Assembly: GCA_012519425.1 (NCBI GenBank)
Contig: JAAYQF010000011.1
Span: 10,658-74,657 of the forward strand
Source: Bacteroidales bacterium
GTDB lineage: Bacteria > Bacteroidota > Bacteroidia > Bacteroidales > Paludibacteraceae
Reading direction: 5' to 3'
Length of the DNA: 64,000 nucleotides
Shown here: positions 3,138 through 47,001 of the stretch, one piece after another
Numbering within the stretch: position 1 is the first letter of the stretch
How the letters are laid out: the number at the start of each line of letters is the position of its first letter
Made by a program: the position numbers and the translations under genes
The notes under the pieces: model-generated
Database searches by the model: none
What the model saw: only the letters and a program-made list of their open reading frames with translations
What the model was told of the DNA's origin: nothing

Positions 3138-3833
3138 TTACGCTGGTTCATTTAATAAATCGAGAAATTCTATACTTCTGGCTTCTAACCTACGAACCAC
3201 TGAATCAACGCGAGAAACCAAATAATTATAACCAAAATACGCAATAATTCCAACTATCAACCCGGCAATGGTTGTAACCATGGCTTGATACATACCTACC
3301 GACAAATCTGACAACTGAATTGTTCCGGTATTATTCAGTGACAAATTATAAAAAGTAGTCACCATTCCTGTAACAGTACCAAGGAACCCTAACATGGGTG
3401 CACCACCGGCTATAGAAGCCATAATTACCAAGCCTTTTTCCAGATTGGCAACTTCCAGGCTACCGATGTTTTCGATGGCGACGAGCACGTCATTCATCGG
3501 ACGCCCCAGTCTGCTGATGCCTTTTTCTATCATTCTGGATATTGGATTGTTTGTGTCCTTGCAAAGTTTTTGAGCTGCCTCGATTTTACCGTCATGGATA
3601 TAGTCTCTAATCCTGTTCATAAAAGATTTGTCTTCTTCCAATGCTTGTTTCAGCGTGACCAAACGCTCAATAAACATATAGATGGCAATGACAAGCATGA
3701 TAGCCAAAATAATCATAATAGGTCCGCCGTAAGTAGCCATTGTCCAAAGATTCATCTTAGCCGGAGCACTTGCGGTTTGTACGGTTTCATCAATTAAATC
3801 TGCCTGTAGCAGTATAAACATGAGCTGATTCAT
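3138..3833 (-). CDS. exbB: MotA/TolQ/ExbB proton channel protein
   Basis: APMLGFLGTVTGM and ALVTT-like AMVTTIAGLIVGI motifs. Confidence 0.93.
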   Translation of the reverse strand: MNQLMFILLQADLIDETVQTASAPAKMNLWTMATYGGPIMIILAIMLVIAIYMFIERLVTLKQALEEDKSFMNRIRDYIHDGKIEAAQKLCKDTNNPISRMIEKGISRLGRPMNDVLVAIENIGSLEVANLEKGLVIMASIAGGAPMLGFLGTVTGMVTTFYNLSLNNTGTIQLSDLSVGMYQAMVTTIAGLIVGIIAYFGYNYLVSRVDSVVRRLEARSIEFLDLLNEPA

Positions 3834-3848
3834 TTTCTTAAATAAATG

Positions 3849-4562
3849 TTATTTTAGTTGATCTTTATATTTTTTTATGGTTTCTTCTAATCCGTAATAC
3901 AGGGCATCCGAAATCAGTGCATGTCCGATTGACACTTCATCAATCCATGGAATATTATCAGATAAATATTTCAGGTTGATTAAACTCAAATCGTGACCGG
4001 CATTTAAGCCTAATCCTATATCTTTGACACATTGAGCAGCCTTGATAAAAGGTGCTATTGCTTTTTCTTTGTTGACCAAATAACCGACGGCGTAAGGTTC
4101 TGTATATAATTCTACCCGGTCAGTTCCGGTTTTTGCCGCTGCTTCAATATTTTTGCAGTCGGTATCAATAAAAACAGACACCCGAATGCCTGCCTGCTTG
4201 AATTCAGCAATTACTTCCCGTAAGAAATCCTGATGTTTGATTGCGTCCCATCCTGCGTTGGAGGTCAATGCTTCGGGAGGATCCGGAACTAAAGTAACCT
4301 GATGAGGCTTAACGGACTTCACCAAAGAGATGAATCGATCTGTGGGATAGCCTTCTATATTGAATTCGGTCGTAATTAGTGGTCTTAAATCCAGTACATC
4401 CTGATACCTGATGTGTCGCTCATCCGGTCGCGGATGAACAGTGATGCCCTGTGCCCCAAATCGTTCGCAATCAACTGCAACCTGAAGTACATCGGGTATA
4501 TTACCTCCCCTTGCATTGCGAATGGTGGCGATTTTATTTATGTTTACACTTAGTTTTGTCAT
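3849..4562 (-). CDS. pdxJ: Pyridoxine 5'-phosphate synthase
   Basis: [41 protein letters not shown]. Confidence 0.96.
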
Positions 4563-8866: not shown

Positions 8867-9010
8867 GGTCCGCGGTCCGTGGTCCGTGGATGCGTGGTAC
8901 GGGTTCCGCGGTAGCGCGGTCGCGAGTTCGCAATTTTTTTGAGCGAAGCGTATATGGCTTGGTTTTTTTGTTTCGTTTTTTTGTATCAAGACAAAACATG
9001 AAGAGGAATG
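8867..9010 (+). repeat. Repeat-system locus E1: GC-rich heptamer tract plus 3' pseudoknot module
   Basis: GGTCCGC GGTCCGT GGTCCGT ... GTTCCGC directly after the alr stop, then TTTTTGAGCGAAGCG and TCAAGACAAAACATGAAG, which resemble the 14.9 and 35.9 kb copies. Confidence 0.8.
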
Positions 9011-9055
9011 TAGAAAAACAAAGTCACGGTCAGGCTGTTTATAAATAGAGATATA

Positions 9056-12362: not shown

Positions 12363-12387
12363 CGACCTCGTCCGATGAGCCAAAAAA
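12363..12387 (+). repeat. Repeat-system fragment (5' segment of the 14.9-kb element)
   Basis: CGACCTCGTCCGATGAGCCAAAAAA matches the reverse complement of 15019-15043 at 24/25 nt. Confidence 0.8.
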
Positions 12388-12413
12388 AGAGCCGTTTCAT
12401 TTTGAAACAGCTC
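12382..12413 (-). terminator. Intrinsic terminator of dps (between convergent nnr and dps)
   Basis: GAGCCGTTTCA-TTT-TGAAACAGCTC hairpin with an A7 tract on its left, which is a U-tail on the minus strand. Confidence 0.7.
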
Positions 12414-14352: not shown

Positions 14353-14793
14353 ATGTCATTAGTTAGATTTTCAAGAAGTTATCCATCTTTGTTCGATCGT
14401 TTTTTTGATAATGATTTTTTCAATTGGTCGAATCAGCATCAGTCACCAATAAACGCAACTTTGCCTTCAGTAAACATTAAGGAAGGCGATAAGAGTTTCG
14501 AAGTTCAAATGGCAGCACCCGGTTTAAAGAAAGAAGATTTTAAAATTGAAATAAACCACAATCTGCTGACCATTTCATCCGAAAACAAGGTTGAAAAAGA
14601 AACGAAAAAGGAAGATGAGTGCTACACTTGCAGAGAGTTCAGCTATCAATCTTTCAGTCGTTCATTCACCTTACCTGACAGTGCTGACAGTGAAAAAATT
14701 TCAGCAAAATATGAAGATGGAATTTTAAACGTCACTATTGGTAAAAAGAAAGAAGCTGTGGTTAAACCGAGCAGATTAATTGATATCAAATAA
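14353..14793 (+). CDS. Hsp20/alpha-crystallin small heat-shock protein
   Basis: PSVNIKE, APGLKKEDF, SFSRSFTLP, YEDGILNV. Confidence 0.95.
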   Translation: MSLVRFSRSYPSLFDRFFDNDFFNWSNQHQSPINATLPSVNIKEGDKSFEVQMAAPGLKKEDFKIEINHNLLTISSENKVEKETKKEDECYTCREFSYQSFSRSFTLPDSADSEKISAKYEDGILNVTIGKKKEAVVKPSRLIDIK

Positions 14794-14823
14794 AGAAGAC
14801 GGTTAAAAATTAAATTTCGAAGA

Positions 14824-14853
14824 GAGCTGCCTCATTTTGAGACAGCTCTTTTT
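14824..14853 (+). terminator. Intrinsic terminator after hsp20
   Basis: GAGCTGCCTCA-TTT-TGAGACAGCTC followed by TTTTT. Confidence 0.75.
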
Positions 14854-14861
14854 GCTTTATC

Positions 14862-15100
14862 ACTTCTCTTCATTTTTTGGCTTGAACCAAAAAACGAAGC
14901 AAAAAAGTTCAAGACTGCGCCCGCTTCGCTCAAAAAATTAGCGCTCGAACAGCTAAATCGTCCAAACTCGCAACTTCGTTGCTCAAACAAGGACGATTCT
15001 TAACGCTGTTCTCACTTATTTTTTGGCTCACCGGACGAGGTCGGTTTGCGTTGTACAACGTAACCCCCGGAACACGCACCGCGTAACTCGTAACTTAACC
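14862..15100 (-). repeat. Repeat-system locus E2: longest copy of the structured element (candidate ncRNA or ssDNA element)
   Basis: Nested inverted repeats (GAACAGC/GCTGTTC, AATCGTCC/GGACGATT, GCAAC-GAA-GTTGC), a 3' pseudoknot and a 5' heptamer tract; partial copies at 8.9, 12.4 and 35.9 kb. Confidence 0.8.
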
Positions 15101-15224
15101 ACTTTTCATTATCACAAAAATGATATTGTTGAATATTCAATGAATAAGTTTTCATGGTTGGTGCAAAAGGTAAAAATATTTTCATCTTTTTACTTTTTGC
15201 GTGCATTTTTTCATTTTAACAAGA

Positions 15225-15232
15225 TACTTTTG
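15225..15232 (+). promoter_or_regulatory. -7 box for the accessory lipoprotein gene
   Basis: TACTTTTG; supports a start downstream of the ORF-track start. Confidence 0.5.
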
Positions 15233-15350
15233 TCCGAGCAAGTTTTTCAAAAAAGACGTTTTAAAAAGAAAGGAGGTTATCCATGGATCCATAAACGAAA
15301 TTATCAGAATGAGTTTGCAACATTTTATTAAACCTTTAAAACCAAAAAAT

Positions 15351-16199
15351 ATGAAAAAAATATTTGTTTCTTTATTCTTTTTCACTCTGCTTTTTTCAGC
15401 ATGCGAAAAGAAAGACAGCGTGCAAAGTAATGAGAATCCAATCACCAACCAAAACATATCTGTTGCAGCAAAGGAGTTGTCGGAGCAGCATGATATCATC
15501 TTAATGGAAATGTTAGCCGCTTGTCAGGAGCAATCCAGGCAGAAAGCTCCGGACTTGAATGATGGTGAAAATCACACTTTCAACCTGGAGCAGGTTTTTG
15601 AAATTATTGAAGCAGTAACCAGTGTCAGACCGGAAATAATTGCCGGAAGCAGTCCGGGCAATCAGTTTAAAATACCGGCCGCTGAAGATAATTTGCCGAC
15701 TTATGACTTTGATCAGGAAGAAATCAATTTGTCTCTGCATGTAAATTCTGTTTTACTTAAGCCATATTTTGATGAAGTGGATTTAATCGTTAATGATTGT
15801 ATGATTGATATAAACGATAAAATTGAGAAGATATCCACTTTGCAACAAGATGTGCAGACAAACAGTGAATTGAGTTATCTTGAACTTGAGAGTTTTATGA
15901 ATTCAACTGAAGTTCTAAAAGGTTCTTTACTGTTGTGGGATGATTTTGTCGATGATGATGATGTTATTAAGAAAAAAAGTAATGGAATTATGTATGCCAA
16001 AAGTCCCACTGAATGGTCTTTGCTCAAAAAGATTGCATTTGTTTCTGCAGCTGATGCAGTAGGGGCTGTTGCAGGAAGTTTTGTGGGCGGTTACATTATT
16101 ATTAAAGGCGTACCTGTGTATATTCCTGCCGGTCCCCAAGGTGCTGCAGCAGGTTTGGCCATACTGTCTTTTGTAGCAGCAAAAATGGTCGGATGGTAA
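15351..16199 (+). CDS. Hypothetical lipoprotein with acidic pro-region and hydrophobic Gly/Ala-rich C-terminus
   Basis: MKKIFVSLFFFTLLFSA-C lipobox after an A-rich translation initiation region; C-terminal AADAVGAVAG...GAAAGLAILSFVAA. Confidence 0.8.
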   Translation: MKKIFVSLFFFTLLFSACEKKDSVQSNENPITNQNISVAAKELSEQHDIILMEMLAACQEQSRQKAPDLNDGENHTFNLEQVFEIIEAVTSVRPEIIAGSSPGNQFKIPAAEDNLPTYDFDQEEINLSLHVNSVLLKPYFDEVDLIVNDCMIDINDKIEKISTLQQDVQTNSELSYLELESFMNSTEVLKGSLLLWDDFVDDDDVIKKKSNGIMYAKSPTEWSLLKKIAFVSAADAVGAVAGSFVGGYIIIKGVPVYIPAGPQGAAAGLAILSFVAAKMVGW

Positions 16200-23376: not shown

Positions 23377-24527
23377 AAACCAAAAGAACGAAATATAGAA
23401 AATCTTCTAAATCAGCAAATTTGCTTGGGACAACCCAAATATTGCTGCATGCCAATCGAATTTTAATCGGGTTGCTCTTTGTCTTTTCAGGTTTTGTAAA
23501 AGCCGTTGATCCTTTAGGAACCGTCTATAAAATCGAAGATTATTTGATTGCATTTGACGGTTTTTTTGTTGGCCTGACGTTTTTGGCTTTTCCCGCTGCC
23601 ATTTGTTTGATTGCTTTAGAGCTTTTGATTGGATTGAATTTGCTGTTTAAAGTATGGCCTAAAATAACAAGTTGGATTGCCTTGGTGTTTATGTTGTTCA
23701 TGACCGCATTAACTTTGTACATCGCTATCTATAATCCGGTTTCAGATTGCGGATGTTTCGGTGATGCACTTGTCATCTCCAATTGGCAGACCTTCTTTAA
23801 AGATGTTGTACTGCTGATCATGATAATTATTCTGCTGTTTGGGAAGAAACAGCTTCGGCCAATCTATCAATCTGGCTTCGAATGGACCTTGGTCGTTCTT
23901 TTTGTCATAGTTGCATTTGGCTTTATGGCTTATAATCTGACACATTTGCCTGTCATTGATTTCAGACCTTATAAAACAGGTGTGAATATTCAGGAAGCTA
24001 TGAGATACCCGGAGGATGCACCGAGGGATGTGTATGAATACGTTTTTACCTACGAAAAGGATGGAATAAAGAGGGAGTTTTCTTTAGAAGAAATTCCTGA
24101 TAGTACCTGGACTTTTATTTCACAAGAAACTAAATTAATATCTGAGGGTTATCAGCCGCCCATACAGGATTTTGAGATCCTTACGGCAAGTTATGAAGAT
24201 CTGACGGATGAAATACTCGAATATCAGGGTGTTACCTACTTAATAATATCTTACGACCTGAGTTTGGCATCCGAAAAAAGTATGGAACGCATCAAATCTT
24301 TTGTGACGCATCAGAGACAGCAAGATCAGGATGTGAAAATATATGCATTGACAGCTTCTTCAACCGATGATATACAGGATTTTAAATTAAAATACGATCT
24401 TGATTTCCCTTTCTATACAACGGATCCCATTACACTTAAAACGATAATTCGGGCCAATCCCGGCGTCATGAAGCTGAAAGCCGGAACGATAAAAGGGAAA
24501 TGGAATTGGAGGCAGATTAAAAATTAA
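23367..24527 (+). CDS. BT_3928 family DoxX/MauE membrane protein with thioredoxin-like C-terminus
   Basis: SGFVKAVDPLG, DCGCFGDA, DFRPYKTG, KTIIRANPG. Confidence 0.88.
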   Translation: MFLKTKRTKYRKSSKSANLLGTTQILLHANRILIGLLFVFSGFVKAVDPLGTVYKIEDYLIAFDGFFVGLTFLAFPAAICLIALELLIGLNLLFKVWPKITSWIALVFMLFMTALTLYIAIYNPVSDCGCFGDALVISNWQTFFKDVVLLIMIIILLFGKKQLRPIYQSGFEWTLVVLFVIVAFGFMAYNLTHLPVIDFRPYKTGVNIQEAMRYPEDAPRDVYEYVFTYEKDGIKREFSLEEIPDSTWTFISQETKLISEGYQPPIQDFEILTASYEDLTDEILEYQGVTYLIISYDLSLASEKSMERIKSFVTHQRQQDQDVKIYALTASSTDDIQDFKLKYDLDFPFYTTDPITLKTIIRANPGVMKLKAGTIKGKWNWRQIKN

Positions 24528-24833
24528 GAACAAAGAACAAAGAACAAAGACAAAGACAAATTGTTTAATGTTTAGTGTTTAATTTTGTTGAATTGTTTAA
24601 TTGTTTAATCGTTTAATCGTTGAATTGTTGAATTGTTGAATTGAGAACAAAAAGTAAAGATAAAAAAACGATGAATGAAGAAGAACAAAGAGCAAAGAAC
24701 AAAGACAAAAGATGAATCAACTAAGAACGAAAAGTGAAGAACGATGAACAAAGAAGACCATGCGACCCCGTAACTTCTCTAACTTCTTTAACTTCTCTAA
24801 CTTCCAAAATATAACTTCAACACTAAAAACTAT
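24528..24833 (-). repeat. Mosaic short-tandem-repeat array A (inverted relative to B and C)
   Basis: (AGAACAA)n, (TGTTTAA)n, (ATTGTTGA)n, (AACTTCTCT)n; 24635-24675 is the exact reverse complement of 40830-40870. Confidence 0.9.
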
Positions 24834-27027: not shown

Positions 27028-27134
27028 GGCGGTTTCTCAAAGGTACCCAACTGCTGCGGTCTGAGTTCCGGGTTCCGCGGTGCGTGGTCGCGAGGTTGTT
27101 TTTTTAAGTTAAATATTGGTTTTGAGACGGCCTC
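27028..27134 (+). mobile_element. MITE-like element M1 with imperfect terminal IRs and an internal heptamer tract
   Basis: Left GGCGGTTTCTCAAA, right TTTTGAGACGGCCTC; internal AGTTCCG GGTTCCG CGGTGCG TGGTCGCG; colinear with the reverse complement of 30316-30440. Confidence 0.6.
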
Positions 27135-27320
27135 TTTGGTGTTTTTTTTAAAATTTTCTTATTTTTGGAGTCTGTATTCAAGTTTTTTTAGAAAAATATA
27201 TAATTGTTTATTGATATGAAACGAACATGAACTAATTTAATCATTCGCAGGGCGAAATAATTGATTAAATTAGTTCATCGAGAGTTCCATATGACAACTA
27301 AAAGAATAAATTATAATCAT

Positions 27321-30315: not shown

Positions 30316-30440
30316 GAGGCTGTCTCAAAATATTCAGCTAAAGTGTCTTACGTTAAATTTAACTTTAAACTAAGGCCGAGCATTACGCACCGCTGAACCC
30401 GGACCGCGGAACACAGCAGTTAGGCGCTTATGAGACACCG
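30316..30440 (-). mobile_element. MITE-like element M2 with terminal IRs and an internal heptamer tract
   Basis: GAGGCTGTCTCAAAA ... TTATGAGACACCG; internal minus-strand TGTTCCG CGGTCCG GGTTCAG CGGTGCG. Confidence 0.6.
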
Positions 30441-33372: not shown

Positions 33373-34500
33373 TCAAAAGGACACCTTGTTGTTTTTAGTC
33401 GAATATTTGTTTTGAGACAGCCTGTTGATTGCTTCCAATAATATTTTTTCTTCCTGTTCCCAGCAATACAGTTTTTTGACTGTATCAAAATGTGTTGTAT
33501 CCATTGGGTTCTCCAACATAGCCTGGATGGTTGCCGCTAATTTATGCGGTTCATACTCATCTGTCAAAATGCCTGTGTGGTGTTTTTTTACGATTTGCAC
33601 TATCTCCGGAAATGGACTTGCCAGGATGGGTACATGGGCATGTAAATAGGCAAAAACCCTGTTGGGCAGGGAGTAATAATAGCTTAACCCTTTGTTTTCC
33701 AACAAGCACAGGCCTATGTCTCCCGATGAGGTATAGCTTTGTAATTCTTTTCCCGAAACTTTCCCGTGAAAGATCACTTTCGATTCCAATCCAAGCATTT
33801 TTACCTTTTGCTTTAGCTCCATGAGCAAGTCTCCGTCACCTATAATGTACAGAACAGCATCTTTTATATATGGCATGGCATTAATTACCCATTCCAATCC
33901 CCTGCCCATATTGACGGCTCCCTGATACAAAATGATTTTTTTATCCGGTACAGTGATTTTCCGCTCTGTTGGCAGCTCCGAAAGATGAGGAACATTTCTG
34001 AGTACTTGCATGTTGATGCCGTATTTATTCTGATAATAGTCAGCAATAGAATCACATACAGTAAAGGATGTATTGAGGTGTGGAAATATAAGATCTTCAA
34101 TTTTTGTCCAAAACTTTTTGACGAATGGTCTGTCCCGGAGTTCCGGTGTTTCCGGGAAAAGTTCATGAGCATCGAAGATCAACTGTTTTTTTCTGATTTT
34201 GGAGGCGAGGAAACAGGCAGGAAGGGTGTCTGTATCGTTGGCGTAATAAATATCAGCTTTTGAAAAAAGCAAATACAGAAACAAACGGATATTCAGTTCA
34301 GCGTAAAATAAAAAAGACCGATTGAAGAGCAAACGCAATCTTTTATGAGGAAATACTATCCGGCTGTTTAAGGTGTTTTTTCGTCTTCTGCCTATTAAAA
34401 ATACCTCATATCCATGCTTAAATAATGAACCGGATACTTTCAACACACGCTGGTCCGTTACGAGATCGTTTGATACAGCTATCAGAATTCTTTTGCCCAT
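33373..34500 (-). CDS. Glycosyltransferase family 4
   Basis: VSNDLVTDQRV, YQGAVNMGRGLE, SLPNRVFAYLHA. Confidence 0.9.
   Translation of the reverse strand: MGKRILIAVSNDLVTDQRVLKVSGSLFKHGYEVFLIGRRRKNTLNSRIVFPHKRLRLLFNRSFLFYAELNIRLFLYLLFSKADIYYANDTDTLPACFLASKIRKKQLIFDAHELFPETPELRDRPFVKKFWTKIEDLIFPHLNTSFTVCDSIADYYQNKYGINMQVLRNVPHLSELPTERKITVPDKKIILYQGAVNMGRGLEWVINAMPYIKDAVLYIIGDGDLLMELKQKVKMLGLESKVIFHGKVSGKELQSYTSSGDIGLCLLENKGLSYYYSLPNRVFAYLHAHVPILASPFPEIVQIVKKHHTGILTDEYEPHKLAATIQAMLENPMDTTHFDTVKKLYCWEQEEKILLEAINRLSQNKYSTKNNKVSF
33380..33424 (-). repeat. Isolated IR end of the GGCTGTCTCAAAA type inside the GT4 3' end
   Basis: Minus strand CAGGCTGTCTCAAAACAAATATTCGACTAAA versus GAGGCTGTCTCAAAATATTCAGCTAAA at 30316. 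Confidence 0.55.
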
Positions 34501-35821: not shown

Positions 35822-35861
35822 TTCAATGCTTAATATAAGTTCTTATTGCCTGCAAATTCAC

Positions 35862-36004
35862 ACTTTCTTCATTTTTTTGTCTTGACCGAAGCAAAAAAAA
35901 GTCAAGACTGTGCCCGCTTCGCTCGAGAAATTAACTTCATAATTTGCAATCTTCCGACCTCGGAACCCGCTACCCCGGAACCCGGAACGCGGAACTCGCT
36001 ACTA
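35862..36004 (-). repeat. Repeat-system locus E3: heptamer tract plus shortened pseudoknot module
   Basis: Abuts the uvrA stop; 35903-35924 matches 14910-14931 at 21/22 nt. Confidence 0.85.
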
Positions 36005-40690: not shown

Positions 40691-41067
40691 GGTAGTTAGT
40701 AGTTGGTAGTTAGTAGTTAGTAGTTTTTTTGGAAGTTATTGAAGTTAAAGAAGTTAGGGAAGTTACGGGGTCCGAGGTCCGAGTTCCGCGGTCGCGAGTT
40801 TAGCTTTTGGCTCTTGGCTTTGTTCTTCGTTCATCGTTTTTTTATCTTTACTTTTTGTTCTCAATTCAACGATTCAACAATTCAACGATTCAACAGTTCA
40901 ACGACTCAACAATTCAACAATTCAACAAAATTAAACATTAAACATTAAACATTAAACAATTTGTCTTTACTCTTTTGTCTTTGTTCTTTGCTCTTTGTTC
41001 TTCTTCGTTCTTCGTTTTTAGTTGATCTGTCTTTATTCTTTTGTCTTTGTTCTTTGCTCTTTGTTCT
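40691..41067 (+). repeat. Mosaic short-tandem-repeat array B (most complete copy)
   Basis: (RGTAGTT)5-(GAAGTTANN)4-(NGKTCCG)3-T-rich-(RATTCAAC-like)8-(ATTAAAC)4-(CTTTGTT-like)n; fills the whole intergenic region. Confidence 0.92.
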
Positions 41068-46623: not shown

Positions 46624-46914
46624 GGTAGTTGGTAGTTGGTAGTTAGTAGTTAGTAGTTAGTAGTTAGTAGTTTTGGAAATTAGGGAAGTTAAGGAGAAGT
46701 TAAAGAAGTTAGCGTGTTCCGAGTTCCGGGGTCGCGAGTTTAGCTTTTGGCTTTGTTCTTCGTTCATCGTTCTTCGTTCTTAGTTAAATTTGTCTTTGTT
46801 CTTTTGTCTTTACTCTTTGTTCTCAGTTCAACAATTCAACGATTCAACACTACACACTACACACTACACACTAAACATTAAACAATTTGTCTTTATTCTT
46901 TGCTCTTTGTTCTT
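46624..46914 (+). repeat. Mosaic short-tandem-repeat array C
   Basis: (RGTAGTT)7-(GAAGTTA..)n-heptamers-(ATTCAAC-like)3-(ACTACAC)3-ACTAAAC-ATTAAAC; shares GGTCGCGAGTTTAGCTTTTGGCT with array B. Confidence 0.92.
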
Positions 46915-47001
46915 CAATAAAATCTTGAAAATTGCACAAAATGTTGCAAGTTGTGCAAAATATATCTATTTTTGCAGCCGTAATTTTAAATCCAATCAAA
47001 A

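Follow-up and report, generated by a model that had tools for sequence, protein, structure and literature searches.

The 64,000-nucleotide stretch of contig JAAYQF010000011.1 from a Bacteroidales bacterium analyzed here (the window) carries, at its hsp20 locus, a non-coding element whose minus strand folds into a nested hairpin rod followed by a distinct 3' domain. Comparison of this element with its relatives shows firmly that it is a non-autonomous dispersed repeat of the MITE (miniature inverted-repeat transposable element) kind, and equally firmly that it contains a large internal fold conserved on one strand. The folded molecule is most likely an RNA transcript of the window's minus strand, and the 3' domain most likely forms a triple-helix pseudoknot. 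We lean, with modest confidence, towards an explanation that joins these parts, in which the window element is a mosaic copy of a MITE family that has no terminal inverted repeats (TIRs) of its own, and in which the core folds on one strand, as RNA, in the service of the element.

The minus-strand fold and its conservation

The four nested segments of the rod described in the original prediction were all found at their place when the coordinates were re-extracted (minus strand, 15042-14868): GCCAAAAAAT/ATTTTTTGAGC together with AGTG/CGCT outermost, then GAACAGC/GCTGTTC, then AATCGTCC/GGACGATT, with GCAAC-GAA-GTTGC innermost. The location given for the rod was correct, but the extent of 14862-15055 was not, as the structured unit runs from the GAC at 15042 to 14868; likewise, the listed helices stand, but two outer closing helices, P0 (GAC/GUC) and P1 (CGUCCG/CGGGCG), had gone unlisted (Table 1). 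The rod is borne out energetically, with the minus-strand RNA folding at -73.9 kcal/mol versus -49.3 +/- 4.4 for dinucleotide shuffles (z = -5.6, matched by 0 of 200 shuffles). The same strand folded as DNA gives z = -4.4, and the plus-strand RNA, at -54.2 kcal/mol, reaches only z = -3.7. The GCGAAGC heptamer, stressed in the prediction as a mini-hairpin of single-stranded DNA, lies in the P1-P2 junction, where a local mini-hairpin and the pairing of its halves with the 5' strand are indistinguishable, and comparative data give that emphasis no backing.

Evidence for the 5' domain comes from 67 distinct copies aligned with the window copy first, the structure having been written from the window copy before the pairs were counted. 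Standard pairs occupy 93.5% of 2870 cells, compared with 31-39% when the 3' partners are slid by one to three columns, and 21 of the 43 pairs change on both sides. The covariation score of 0.335 is reached by none of 500 shuffles and compares with 0.04-0.08 in the slid controls; because the sequences are related, shuffle controls overstate significance, and the slid controls and the multi-state pair count are the better guide. Every rod helix covaries. P1 occurs as CGUCCG/CGGGCG, UGCCUG/CAGGCA and UGUCCG/CGGACA, its two covarying positions reading CG:38/UA:22/UG:7 and CG:37/UA:28/UG:1, and two pairs of P2/P2b read AU:33/GC:32 and CG:36/UA:30. P3 takes the forms GAACAGC/GCUGUUC, GAUUGAC/GUCAAUC, AGUUGGC/GCCAACU and GAAAGGC/GCCUUUC, and P4 the forms AAUCGUCC/GGACGAUU, AAUCGUUC/GAACGAUU, ACUGUCC/GGACGGU and AUACUCC/GGAGGAU. 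In the apical hairpin P5 all five pairs change on both sides, and the sequence of the loop that encloses it is conserved. Core length in the family is about 175-215 nt.

P1 and P2 are separated by a conserved purine-rich 4x4 internal loop (5'-RUGA facing 5'-GAAG), in which U15, G16 and A17 are invariant on the side not forced by the search pattern, and similar UGA...GAR arrangements flank P3 and P5. The conservation of the 5' strand as a whole (GAC-U-G...G-UGA-CC) is independent of the search pattern as well. The loop next to P2 probably forms tandem sheared G.A pairs, and the UGA...GAR loops in general have the look of tandem sheared G.A motifs. Neither the K-turn nor the sarcin-ricin consensus fits the strands of these loops, and both readings were set aside, by reasoning only.

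Two features of the alignment bear on the nature of the constraint. The G.U and U.G cells number 162 versus 23 for A.C and C.A, and one U.G, in P2/P2b, is retained in 57 of the 67 copies; this excess indicates that the structure is selected on one strand alone, the window's minus strand, and selection of one strand makes a double-stranded palindrome or cruciform impossible. The substitution pattern shows, at the level of the aligned copies, that the core structure is under purifying selection as a single strand. Coding, for its part, is ruled out by one-nucleotide indels among the copies together with the covariation pattern, in agreement with the prediction that no open reading frame (ORF) explains the sequence; ORFs of 49-64 aa do overlap the element region. 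Public gene calls place ORFs of 57-108 aa over the element, with no Pfam hit (L072 3481-3807 and L073 3660-3833, corresponding to window about 14830-15200, minus strand); these calls are almost certainly spurious and caused by the repeat.

The 3' domain was parsed with anchors in 103-105 distinct copies, a MAFFT alignment having been dropped because it placed indels inconsistently. Helix Pa (GUCUUGAx / x'UCAAGAC) retains seven or eight of its eight pairs in nearly all copies, and its variable pair x:x' is U:A in 43, C:G in 40 and A:U in 10, that is, Watson-Crick in 93 of 103 copies (shuffle mean 42.5, maximum 59). Helix Pb comes with ten or more different complementary versions of its head (CUUCG/UGAAG, CUUAC/GUAAG, GUAC/GUAC, GCAC/GUGC, CUGAC/GUCAG, CUUCC/GGAAG, CAUAC/GUAUG and others), with a head pairing of 4.71 out of 5 compared with 3.39 when shuffled, and its inner closing pairs vary as GU/AC, GG/CC, GC/GC and AU/AU. 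The two helices interleave, because Pb's 6-nt loop also serves as the core of Pa's 3' arm. The pseudoknot proposed for this part thus finds its two interleaved covarying helices, but Pa and Pb may exist either together, as a compact loop-to-upstream pseudoknot, or as two alternative states.

The lengths of three homopolymeric tracts in the 3' domain are coupled. U-tract 2 is as long as the A-tract (7/7 in 44 copies, 6/6 in 23, 5/5 in 11, also 4/4 and 3/3), and U-tract 1 plus a G exceeds the A-tract by two in the main classes (9/7 in 39 copies, 8/6 in 22, 7/5 in 11) and by one in the two shortest (5/4 in 7 copies, 4/3 in 5). A linker that crosses a groove need not track helix length one for one, and U-tract 1 can on this account be read as a Hoogsteen strand. 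In two copies that are otherwise very different (L087 and L131), a G in the A-tract is accompanied by the complementary C in U-tract 2 and by a C in U-tract 1, in the register that a strand running parallel to the purines would have. The pattern suggests a triple helix of U.A-U and C+.G-C triples with the A-tract as acceptor, in which U-tract 1 would lie in the major groove of the U-tract 2/A-tract helix and form the U.A-U triples.

Table 1. Positions in the window of the element, its helices and loops, and related features.
Feature	Position	Strand	Composition or partner	Basis
Strain-variable segment at hsp20 locus	14854-15124	-	271 bp	Comparison of assemblies
Structured core	14868-15042	-	5' domain and 3' domain (putative pseudoknot), ~175 nt	Family alignment, pair counts, anchored 3' parse
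P0, 5' arm	15040-15042	-	GAC; partner GUC 14913-14915	Invariant in 67 copies, hence uninformative for covariation; in minimum-free-energy fold
P1, 5' arm	15032-15037	-	CGUCCG; partner CGGGCG 14918-14923	Two covarying positions
4x4 internal loop, 5' strand	15028-15031	-	R-U-G-A; facing GAAG 14924-14927	Conservation
P2 and P2b, 5' strand	15013-15027	-	GCCAAAAAAU, AGUG; partners 14928-14943, bulged A 14930	Covariation
P3, 5' arm	15005-15011	-	GAACAGC; partner GCUGUUC 14947-14953	Both-side changes in 6/7 pairs
P4, 5' arm	14991-14998	-	AAUCGUCC; partner GGACGAUU 14956-14963	Both-side changes in 5/8 pairs
Conserved internal loop around apical hairpin P5	14964-14990	-	UUGUUUGA/GAGUUU; P5 GCAAC-GAA-GUUGC (14970-14982)	Alignment
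Pa	14879-14915	-	GUCUUGAA (14908-14915) with UUCAAGCC (14879-14886); U-tract 1 (14900-14907) between	Anchored parse
Pb	14868-14899	-	CUUCGUUUUUUGG (14887-14899) with CCAAAAAAUGAAG (14868-14880); 6-nt loop UUCAAG	Anchored parse
Variable head	15043-15094	-	Module UUGUACAACGCAAACC (15043-15058) and heptamer array (15059-15094)	Sequence
hsp20 terminator-like hairpin	14820-14853		AAAAAGAGCTGTCTC-AAAA-TGAGGCAGCTCTCTT	Adjoins element, not part of it
Partial member, rodless	8867-9012	+	Heptamer array (8867-8921) joined at T-run to degenerate 3' domain (8932-9012)	
Partial member	35861-36002	-	Heptamer array (35957-36002) and 3' domain without U-tract 2 (35861-35933)	
Solo 5' module	12363-12387	+	CGACCTCGTCCGATGAGCCAAAAAAA, fused at A-run to terminator-like hairpin (12389-12413)	

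Copies, ends and modules of the family

A pattern scan of one genome per species gave true matches only in the metagenome-assembled genome 'Bacteroidetes bacterium ADurb.Bin174', which holds 10 copies; the remaining 61 of its 71 hits fell by chance in unrelated genomes. One of its loci (L015, MWCX01000023.1) agrees with the window copy throughout the core and differs from the 281-bp query at a single position. The Hsp20 neighbor is identical residue for residue in more than 240 assembly blocks from anaerobic-digester metagenomes, which identifies the host as a widespread uncultured digester bacterium, and neighboring proteins that by inspection resemble SusC/SusD and cargo tailed for the type IX secretion system (T9SS) fit Bacteroidota. 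Scanning metagenomes with a 23-nt pattern from the 3' domain (GAGCGAAGC..AGTCTTGA, also written GAGCGAAGC..AGUCUUGA) yielded at least 119 loci and at least about 129 distinct copies from several clearly different lineages, so that the further copies and the covariation called for by the original prediction were both found; viral contigs gave no match to the 23-mer. Because the copies were collected by a pattern inside the 3' domain, the breadth of the family is underestimated and that stretch is biased. From DNA depth in four metagenomes (core contigs 340-1540, single-copy flanks 4.6-14.2), we estimate 80-125 copy equivalents per genome equivalent.

The core fits no described Rfam family. A scan of the whole window at the gathering thresholds of Rfam 15, a check that the prediction had also proposed, returned no hits, the same scan of nine loci with complete copies returned just two tRNAs, elsewhere in those loci, and a scan of 14500-15400 at E <= 10 gave noise far below threshold (RefA9 on the hsp20 terminator, miRNA models on an A/U hairpin).

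The ends of the element are best seen in relatives. In sister lineages the core lies inside units of 285-330 bp with perfect TIRs, which in these members and in L158 and L134 measure 14-25 bp. Four TIR types surround the same core, differing by lineage (ATGATTATCCGCAATGTGTACAG.../...CTGTACATTATGCGGATAATCAT; ATGAGTATCCG...; TAGTGCATTTGATAG...; TAGTACATGACAAAAA...), and L158 and L134, whose cores belong to the window subfamily, have the inverted ends CACATGACAAAAAAT / ATTTTTGACATGTG (...GACATGTG). Units with the first two TIR types are flanked by 8-bp AT-rich direct repeats, perfect at L105, L125, L146 and a 242-bp element at L174, matching in 7 of 8 positions at L193 and a 285-bp element at L174, and absent from three group A/B copies. 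Together, TIRs and 8-bp duplications mark the action of a DDE transposase on double-stranded DNA. Another MITE, with an unrelated long-hairpin interior, shares the 23-bp ends of the first type (L174 712-953, L177 355-565); the occurrence of the same ends on two interiors implies that the ends belong to the transposase and that the structured core is its cargo. At L174 the two MITEs with the same ends stand head to tail, 10 bp apart. The complete members are thus shown to be MITEs moved as double-stranded DNA by a transposase in trans. The prediction of a non-autonomous, multi-copy element accordingly holds, with at least some 129 distinct copies and no accompanying protein gene: clustering of 605 ORFs (150 aa or longer) from about 130 loci brought up no recurrent genes but those of the host (SusC/SusD-like, MiaB-like, UvrA-like, T9SS cargo and similar, by sequence inspection and no family scan), and no Y1/HUH, TnpB or reverse-transcriptase gene was recurrently adjacent.

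The family is also a mosaic. As had been noticed from the sequence of the window, the relatives at 8.9 and 35.9 kb consist of a heptamer array and a 3' domain without the rod, and that at 12.4 kb of the 5' module alone (Table 1). The joint pattern of the 3' domain, GAGCGAAGCG-N30-60-AAAANATGAAGA, occurs three times in the window and in none of 100 shuffles, and the member at 35.9 kb lies directly after the uvrA stop codon. At least six more solo 5'-module fragments were found at other loci, and solo 5' modules ending in an A-run and solo 3' domains beginning at a T-run recur. Near-identical cores carry different heads, namely GC-rich heptamer arrays (GTTACGA GTTACGC GGTGCGT GTTCCGG ... in the window copy), CGCAGATT-type arrays and CCAGGG...CCCTGG hairpins, and the rod apex is replaced in other copies by longer hairpins or by a nested MITE (in opposite orientations at L008 and L068). 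Tandem duplications of the 3' domain occur at L085, L100, L108, L135, L143, L145 and L167; some of these combine both domain types, GCUUCG...UGAAG and GGCAC...GUGC. Partial and chimeric copies arise when breaks occur at the A- and T-runs, when other repeats insert in a nested fashion and when the 3' domain is duplicated in tandem.

The hsp20 locus itself varies among strains. In L072, L074, L080 and L081 it is occupied by a family member of opposite orientation that has another head and the same boundaries; the two fillings indicate that the locus was filled or replaced more than once. Beside this polymorphism (3442-3900 in the same four loci) lies an inverted duplication of the flank CATTGAATATTCA, possibly the trace of a rearrangement. 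An exact-protein look-up of three window loci (hsp20, 8.9 and 35.9 kb) found all assemblies filled and no empty allele. A variant that lacks 38 nt of the rod interior (window 14941-14980) appears in DNA and RNA contigs of several runs; it is a deletion derivative that exists as DNA and no product of splicing.

The surroundings of the element are rich in other repeats. GC-rich imperfect heptamer arrays (GGTNCGN) occur at 8867-8921, 15059-15094, 27065-27098, 35957-36002 and 40762-40800 in a genome of 40% G+C, where they adjoin family members, stand alone or lie inside other repeats; what the original prediction called the heptamer head is a separate, movable module. A MITE of about 160-190 nt with ends GGCGGTGTCTCAWAAGTGCCCAACTGCTGCG ... 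TTTTGAGACAGCC is present at 27028-27137 (+), its interior swapped for a heptamer array, and its ends recur in the window at 33410-33422 (+) and 30318-30330 (-); at L008 2200-2680 and L068 5440-5940 it is this MITE that takes the place of the rod's apical hairpin, in opposite orientations. The terminator-like hairpin GAGCYGYYTC-loop-GARRCRGCTC is a repeated module in its own right (14820-14853 and 12389-12413, and at the same place in L075-L079), its arms resemble the ends of the 160-190-nt MITE, and at the hsp20 locus arms and loop are flipped between strains (GAGCTGTCTCAAAATGAGGCAGCTC versus GAGCTGCCTCATTTTTGAGACAGCTC). Finally, intergenic patchworks of short tandem arrays set end to end occupy 24526-24804, 40692-41067 and 46625-46961, with the units GTAGTTA x5-7, GAAGTTAAA x4, GGTCCGA x4, CAATTCAA x8, ATTAAAC x4, TTTGTTC x15, AAGAACA x5-10, AATTGTTT x10 and ACACTAC x4; similar arrays stand at loci of other lineages (L091, L097, L151, L162), and they recall the STRR heptamer arrays of cyanobacteria.

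Genomic context, transcripts and competing explanations

All copies are intergenic, and by their flanking ORFs 26 lie in convergent, 48 in tandem and 14 in divergent contexts. They are found mostly near the 3' ends of genes, with fewer in promoter-only regions, and the tandem contexts show no orientation bias (25 co-oriented versus 23 opposed). In metatranscriptome assemblies the core appears with many different flanks at a summed depth of 500-1000 (two runs), and in the same runs hsp20 has a depth of 62-85 and the downstream gene 20-34; as about 100 copies share the summed depth, the signal per copy lies below that of the neighboring genes. One metatranscriptome contig of 1097 nt (X26, record 14) carries a diverged rod copy that matches window 14933-15042 with 10 differences at a depth of 359, four times that of the hsp20 transcript, so that one copy or more, at some locus, must belong to a highly expressed RNA. 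A reading of the element as a terminator was rejected on inspection, there being no U-tail after the hairpins.

A strand-specific fold, random insertion orientation and a core kept despite different ends together argue that the fold serves the element and not single host genes. One weakly held guess is that it might act as a module for RNA stability or protection, in the manner of the ENE triple helices carried by eukaryotic transposon transcripts; such a role is weakly favored over regulation of neighboring host genes. Several observations weigh against our preferred explanation of a mosaic MITE copy with an RNA core. The window copy has neither TIRs nor a definable target duplication, and no empty allele of it was found, so that its own mode of arrival is inferred from its relatives. 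No transposase recurs beside the copies in 1.4 Mb of flanks and none was identified as cognate, no search aimed at one having been made. The apparent invariance of GAGCGAAGC..AGTCTTGA follows from the use of that 23-nt stretch in collecting the copies. The RNA evidence is weak, as the contigs are strandless and DNA carry-over is possible, and inspection for the Bacteroidetes promoter (TTTG / TAnnTTTG) inside the element revealed near-misses only. There is no linker on the 3' side between Pa and Pb, which may be alternative states rather than one pseudoknot, and the C/G/C triple change rests on two lineages and may represent one ancestral event. Lastly, single-stranded DNA, too, could show a G.U bias, tandem G.A pairs and T.A-T triples.

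This last point touches the mechanism put forward in the original prediction, in which folded single-stranded DNA would be the substrate of an HUH/Y1 enzyme (as in the PATEs of IS200/IS605 or in REPINs) or of another single-strand recombinase (as at integron attC sites), or in which an RNA would be copied by reverse transcriptase. The maintenance of structure on one strand with little conservation of primary sequence does recall attC sites and IS608 ends, the minus strand also folds significantly as DNA (z = -4.4), TIRs and a target duplication are missing from the window copy, and simple cut-and-paste leaves the mosaic heads unexplained. The complete members, however, end exactly in perfect TIRs and have 8-bp target duplications, retro-copies would lack TIRs, and no Y1, RAYT, TnpB, integrase or reverse-transcriptase gene was found near the copies among the clustered flanking ORFs. 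Both orientations occur within the 64-kb window, as they do among strains at the hsp20 locus, which argues against a single-strand mechanism that depends on the replicating strand. The proposed route is therefore not supported, and a derivation as an IS200/IS605 PATE or REPIN does not fit, given the TIRs, the duplications and the absence of recurrently adjacent Y1/HUH, TnpB or reverse-transcriptase genes; we regard any version of the route as very unlikely.

The fold could instead work for the host, as a cis element of the REP/BIME, BOX, ERIC or Correia kind whose transcript would stabilize or insulate neighboring mRNAs by blocking 3' exonucleases or read-through. Such a role would suit the strictly intergenic position of the copies, their enrichment 3' of genes and between convergent genes, their depletion between divergent genes, the frequent adjacency of terminator-like hairpins and the two window copies that begin right after a stop codon on the same strand, and a triplex and pseudoknot could indeed block exonucleases. 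With 25 co-oriented and 23 opposed copies and a strand-specific fold, however, half of the copies would be inert, depletion at promoters is equally expected from purifying selection against harmful insertions, and the presence of the same core in TIR-bounded units of different species points to selection on the element and not on single loci. We consider a cis function of this kind improbable.

A related question is whether the core is a functional non-coding RNA (ncRNA) of a mobile-element system whose protein is encoded elsewhere, acting as cofactor, guide, decoy or self-cleaving ribozyme, with the MITE copies serving to spread or amplify it. Its architecture goes beyond the needs of a MITE (at least five covarying helices, three UGA...GAR loops, a pseudoknot and a possible triplex), the core is conserved across lineages with differing TIRs, the constraint is strand-specific and no Rfam family matches. 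Its RUGA/GAA loop beside a helix also recalls domain 2 of the hammerhead ribozyme: the string C-Y-G-R-U-G-A [helix] G-A-A corresponds to the tandem G.A/U.A pairs that adjoin helix II, it is followed by a GUC, and certain copies have precisely CUGAUGA...GAA...GUC. The hammerhead was nevertheless rejected, because the junction is two-way and not three-way, the Y at the 'U4' position pairs with R (CG:37, UA:28), U4 and A6 vary freely so that CUGAUGA occurs in only 6 of 67 copies, position 15.1 is G, and no Rfam hammerhead hit was obtained at E <= 10. An HDV-like ribozyme (the rod as P4, C-GAA as J4/2) was also rejected, as the mere four nucleotides (RUGA) separating its candidate P2 strand from the rod leave no room for P1 and P3, and Rfam gave no hit. 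No protein gene is recurrently adjacent in about 129 loci, no variable guide-like segment stands at a fixed position, no ends of a cleavage type are visible (in contigs only), and the RNA signal per copy is low; an ncRNA of this kind seems to us doubtful. A somewhat broader formulation, which we hold tentatively as one possibility, would make the core a new class of structured ncRNA, consisting of a rod with three tandem-G.A loops and a U.A-U triplex pseudoknot, that travels as cargo of Bacteroidota MITEs and has a specific task in a mobile-element system, whether as cofactor, guide or decoy of a protein encoded elsewhere, as a self-processing RNA or as a bacterial ENE that shields transposon transcripts from decay.

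Relation to known elements and significance

The element agrees with MITEs in being small (a 271-bp polymorphic segment, complete relatives of 285-330 bp, against a usual MITE range of about 50-600 bp), multi-copy and without a conserved ORF, and bacterial MITEs such as Correia/NEMIS, ERIC and RUP are likewise small, non-coding, multi-copy and strictly intergenic; like the complete copies of the present family, they also have TIRs and target duplications and are mobilized in trans. In ordinary MITEs, however, the TIRs are the conserved part and the hairpin results from their pairing, whereas here an internal multi-helix fold with a predicted pseudoknot is conserved despite differing TIRs. BOX of Streptococcus pneumoniae and BIME/REP of enterobacteria are modular mosaic repeats with optional or repeated middle modules and a stable predicted RNA structure and without a transposase of their own, and REPs are linked to RAYT (Y1) transposases. 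Our element shares no sequence similarity with BOX or REP, belongs to another phylum and shows no sign of a RAYT link, and those repeats form simple hairpins without a pseudoknot or purine loops. In its mosaic make-up it nonetheless resembles both BOX/BIME and BrickBuilt of Porphyromonas gingivalis, also of the Bacteroidota, which is reported to combine a MITE with a minisatellite in its interior and to lie 49-591 nt from coding sequences (PMC4596501).

The putative triplex has its closest parallel in the ENE and double-ENE triple helices of PAN, MALAT1 and plant and fungal transposon transcripts, and the telomerase-RNA pseudoknot also contains a triple helix (PMC13541005). As in an ENE, two U-rich tracts precede an A-rich tract, with one U-tract predicted to pair with it by Watson-Crick and the other by Hoogsteen contacts, C+.G-C substitutions appear to covary over three strands, and the structure may be carried by transcripts of transposable elements. 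The ENE examples, in contrast, come from eukaryotes or viruses, and what they clamp is a poly(A) tail or 3'-terminal A-tract, whereas the present element is bacterial and its A-tract internal; moreover, the reversal between its U-tracts has only 6 nt, themselves paired, and its triplex is read from covariation alone. HEARO/omega-RNAs of IscB and TnpB (IS200/IS605) offer a further parallel as large, structured, multi-copy RNAs in mobile elements, with a pseudoknot and non-autonomous derivatives. Here, however, no Rfam model matches, no iscB or tnpB is adjacent and no guide segment flanks the element, and the family has TIRs and duplications, neither of which is found at IS200/IS605 ends.

MITEs are usually treated as inert shells in which the inverted ends alone matter. 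What is new here is that the conserved part of a MITE family is a complex structured core, and the retention of a large internal fold with clear compensatory changes, a conserved wobble and a pseudoknot showing signs of a base-triple helix across diverged ends points to a selected single-stranded function inside a DNA transposon. If that function is exerted at the RNA level, a transposon transcript with an ENE-like triple helix might here be seen for the first time in a bacterium or, alternatively, the element could be a new RNA partner of a mobile-element protein; HEARO, earlier an orphan structured repeat, later proved to be the omega-RNA guide of IscB. The core is a ready candidate for a new Rfam family, and the family flags a genome in which nested repeats and minisatellites make the intergenic DNA an unusual patchwork.

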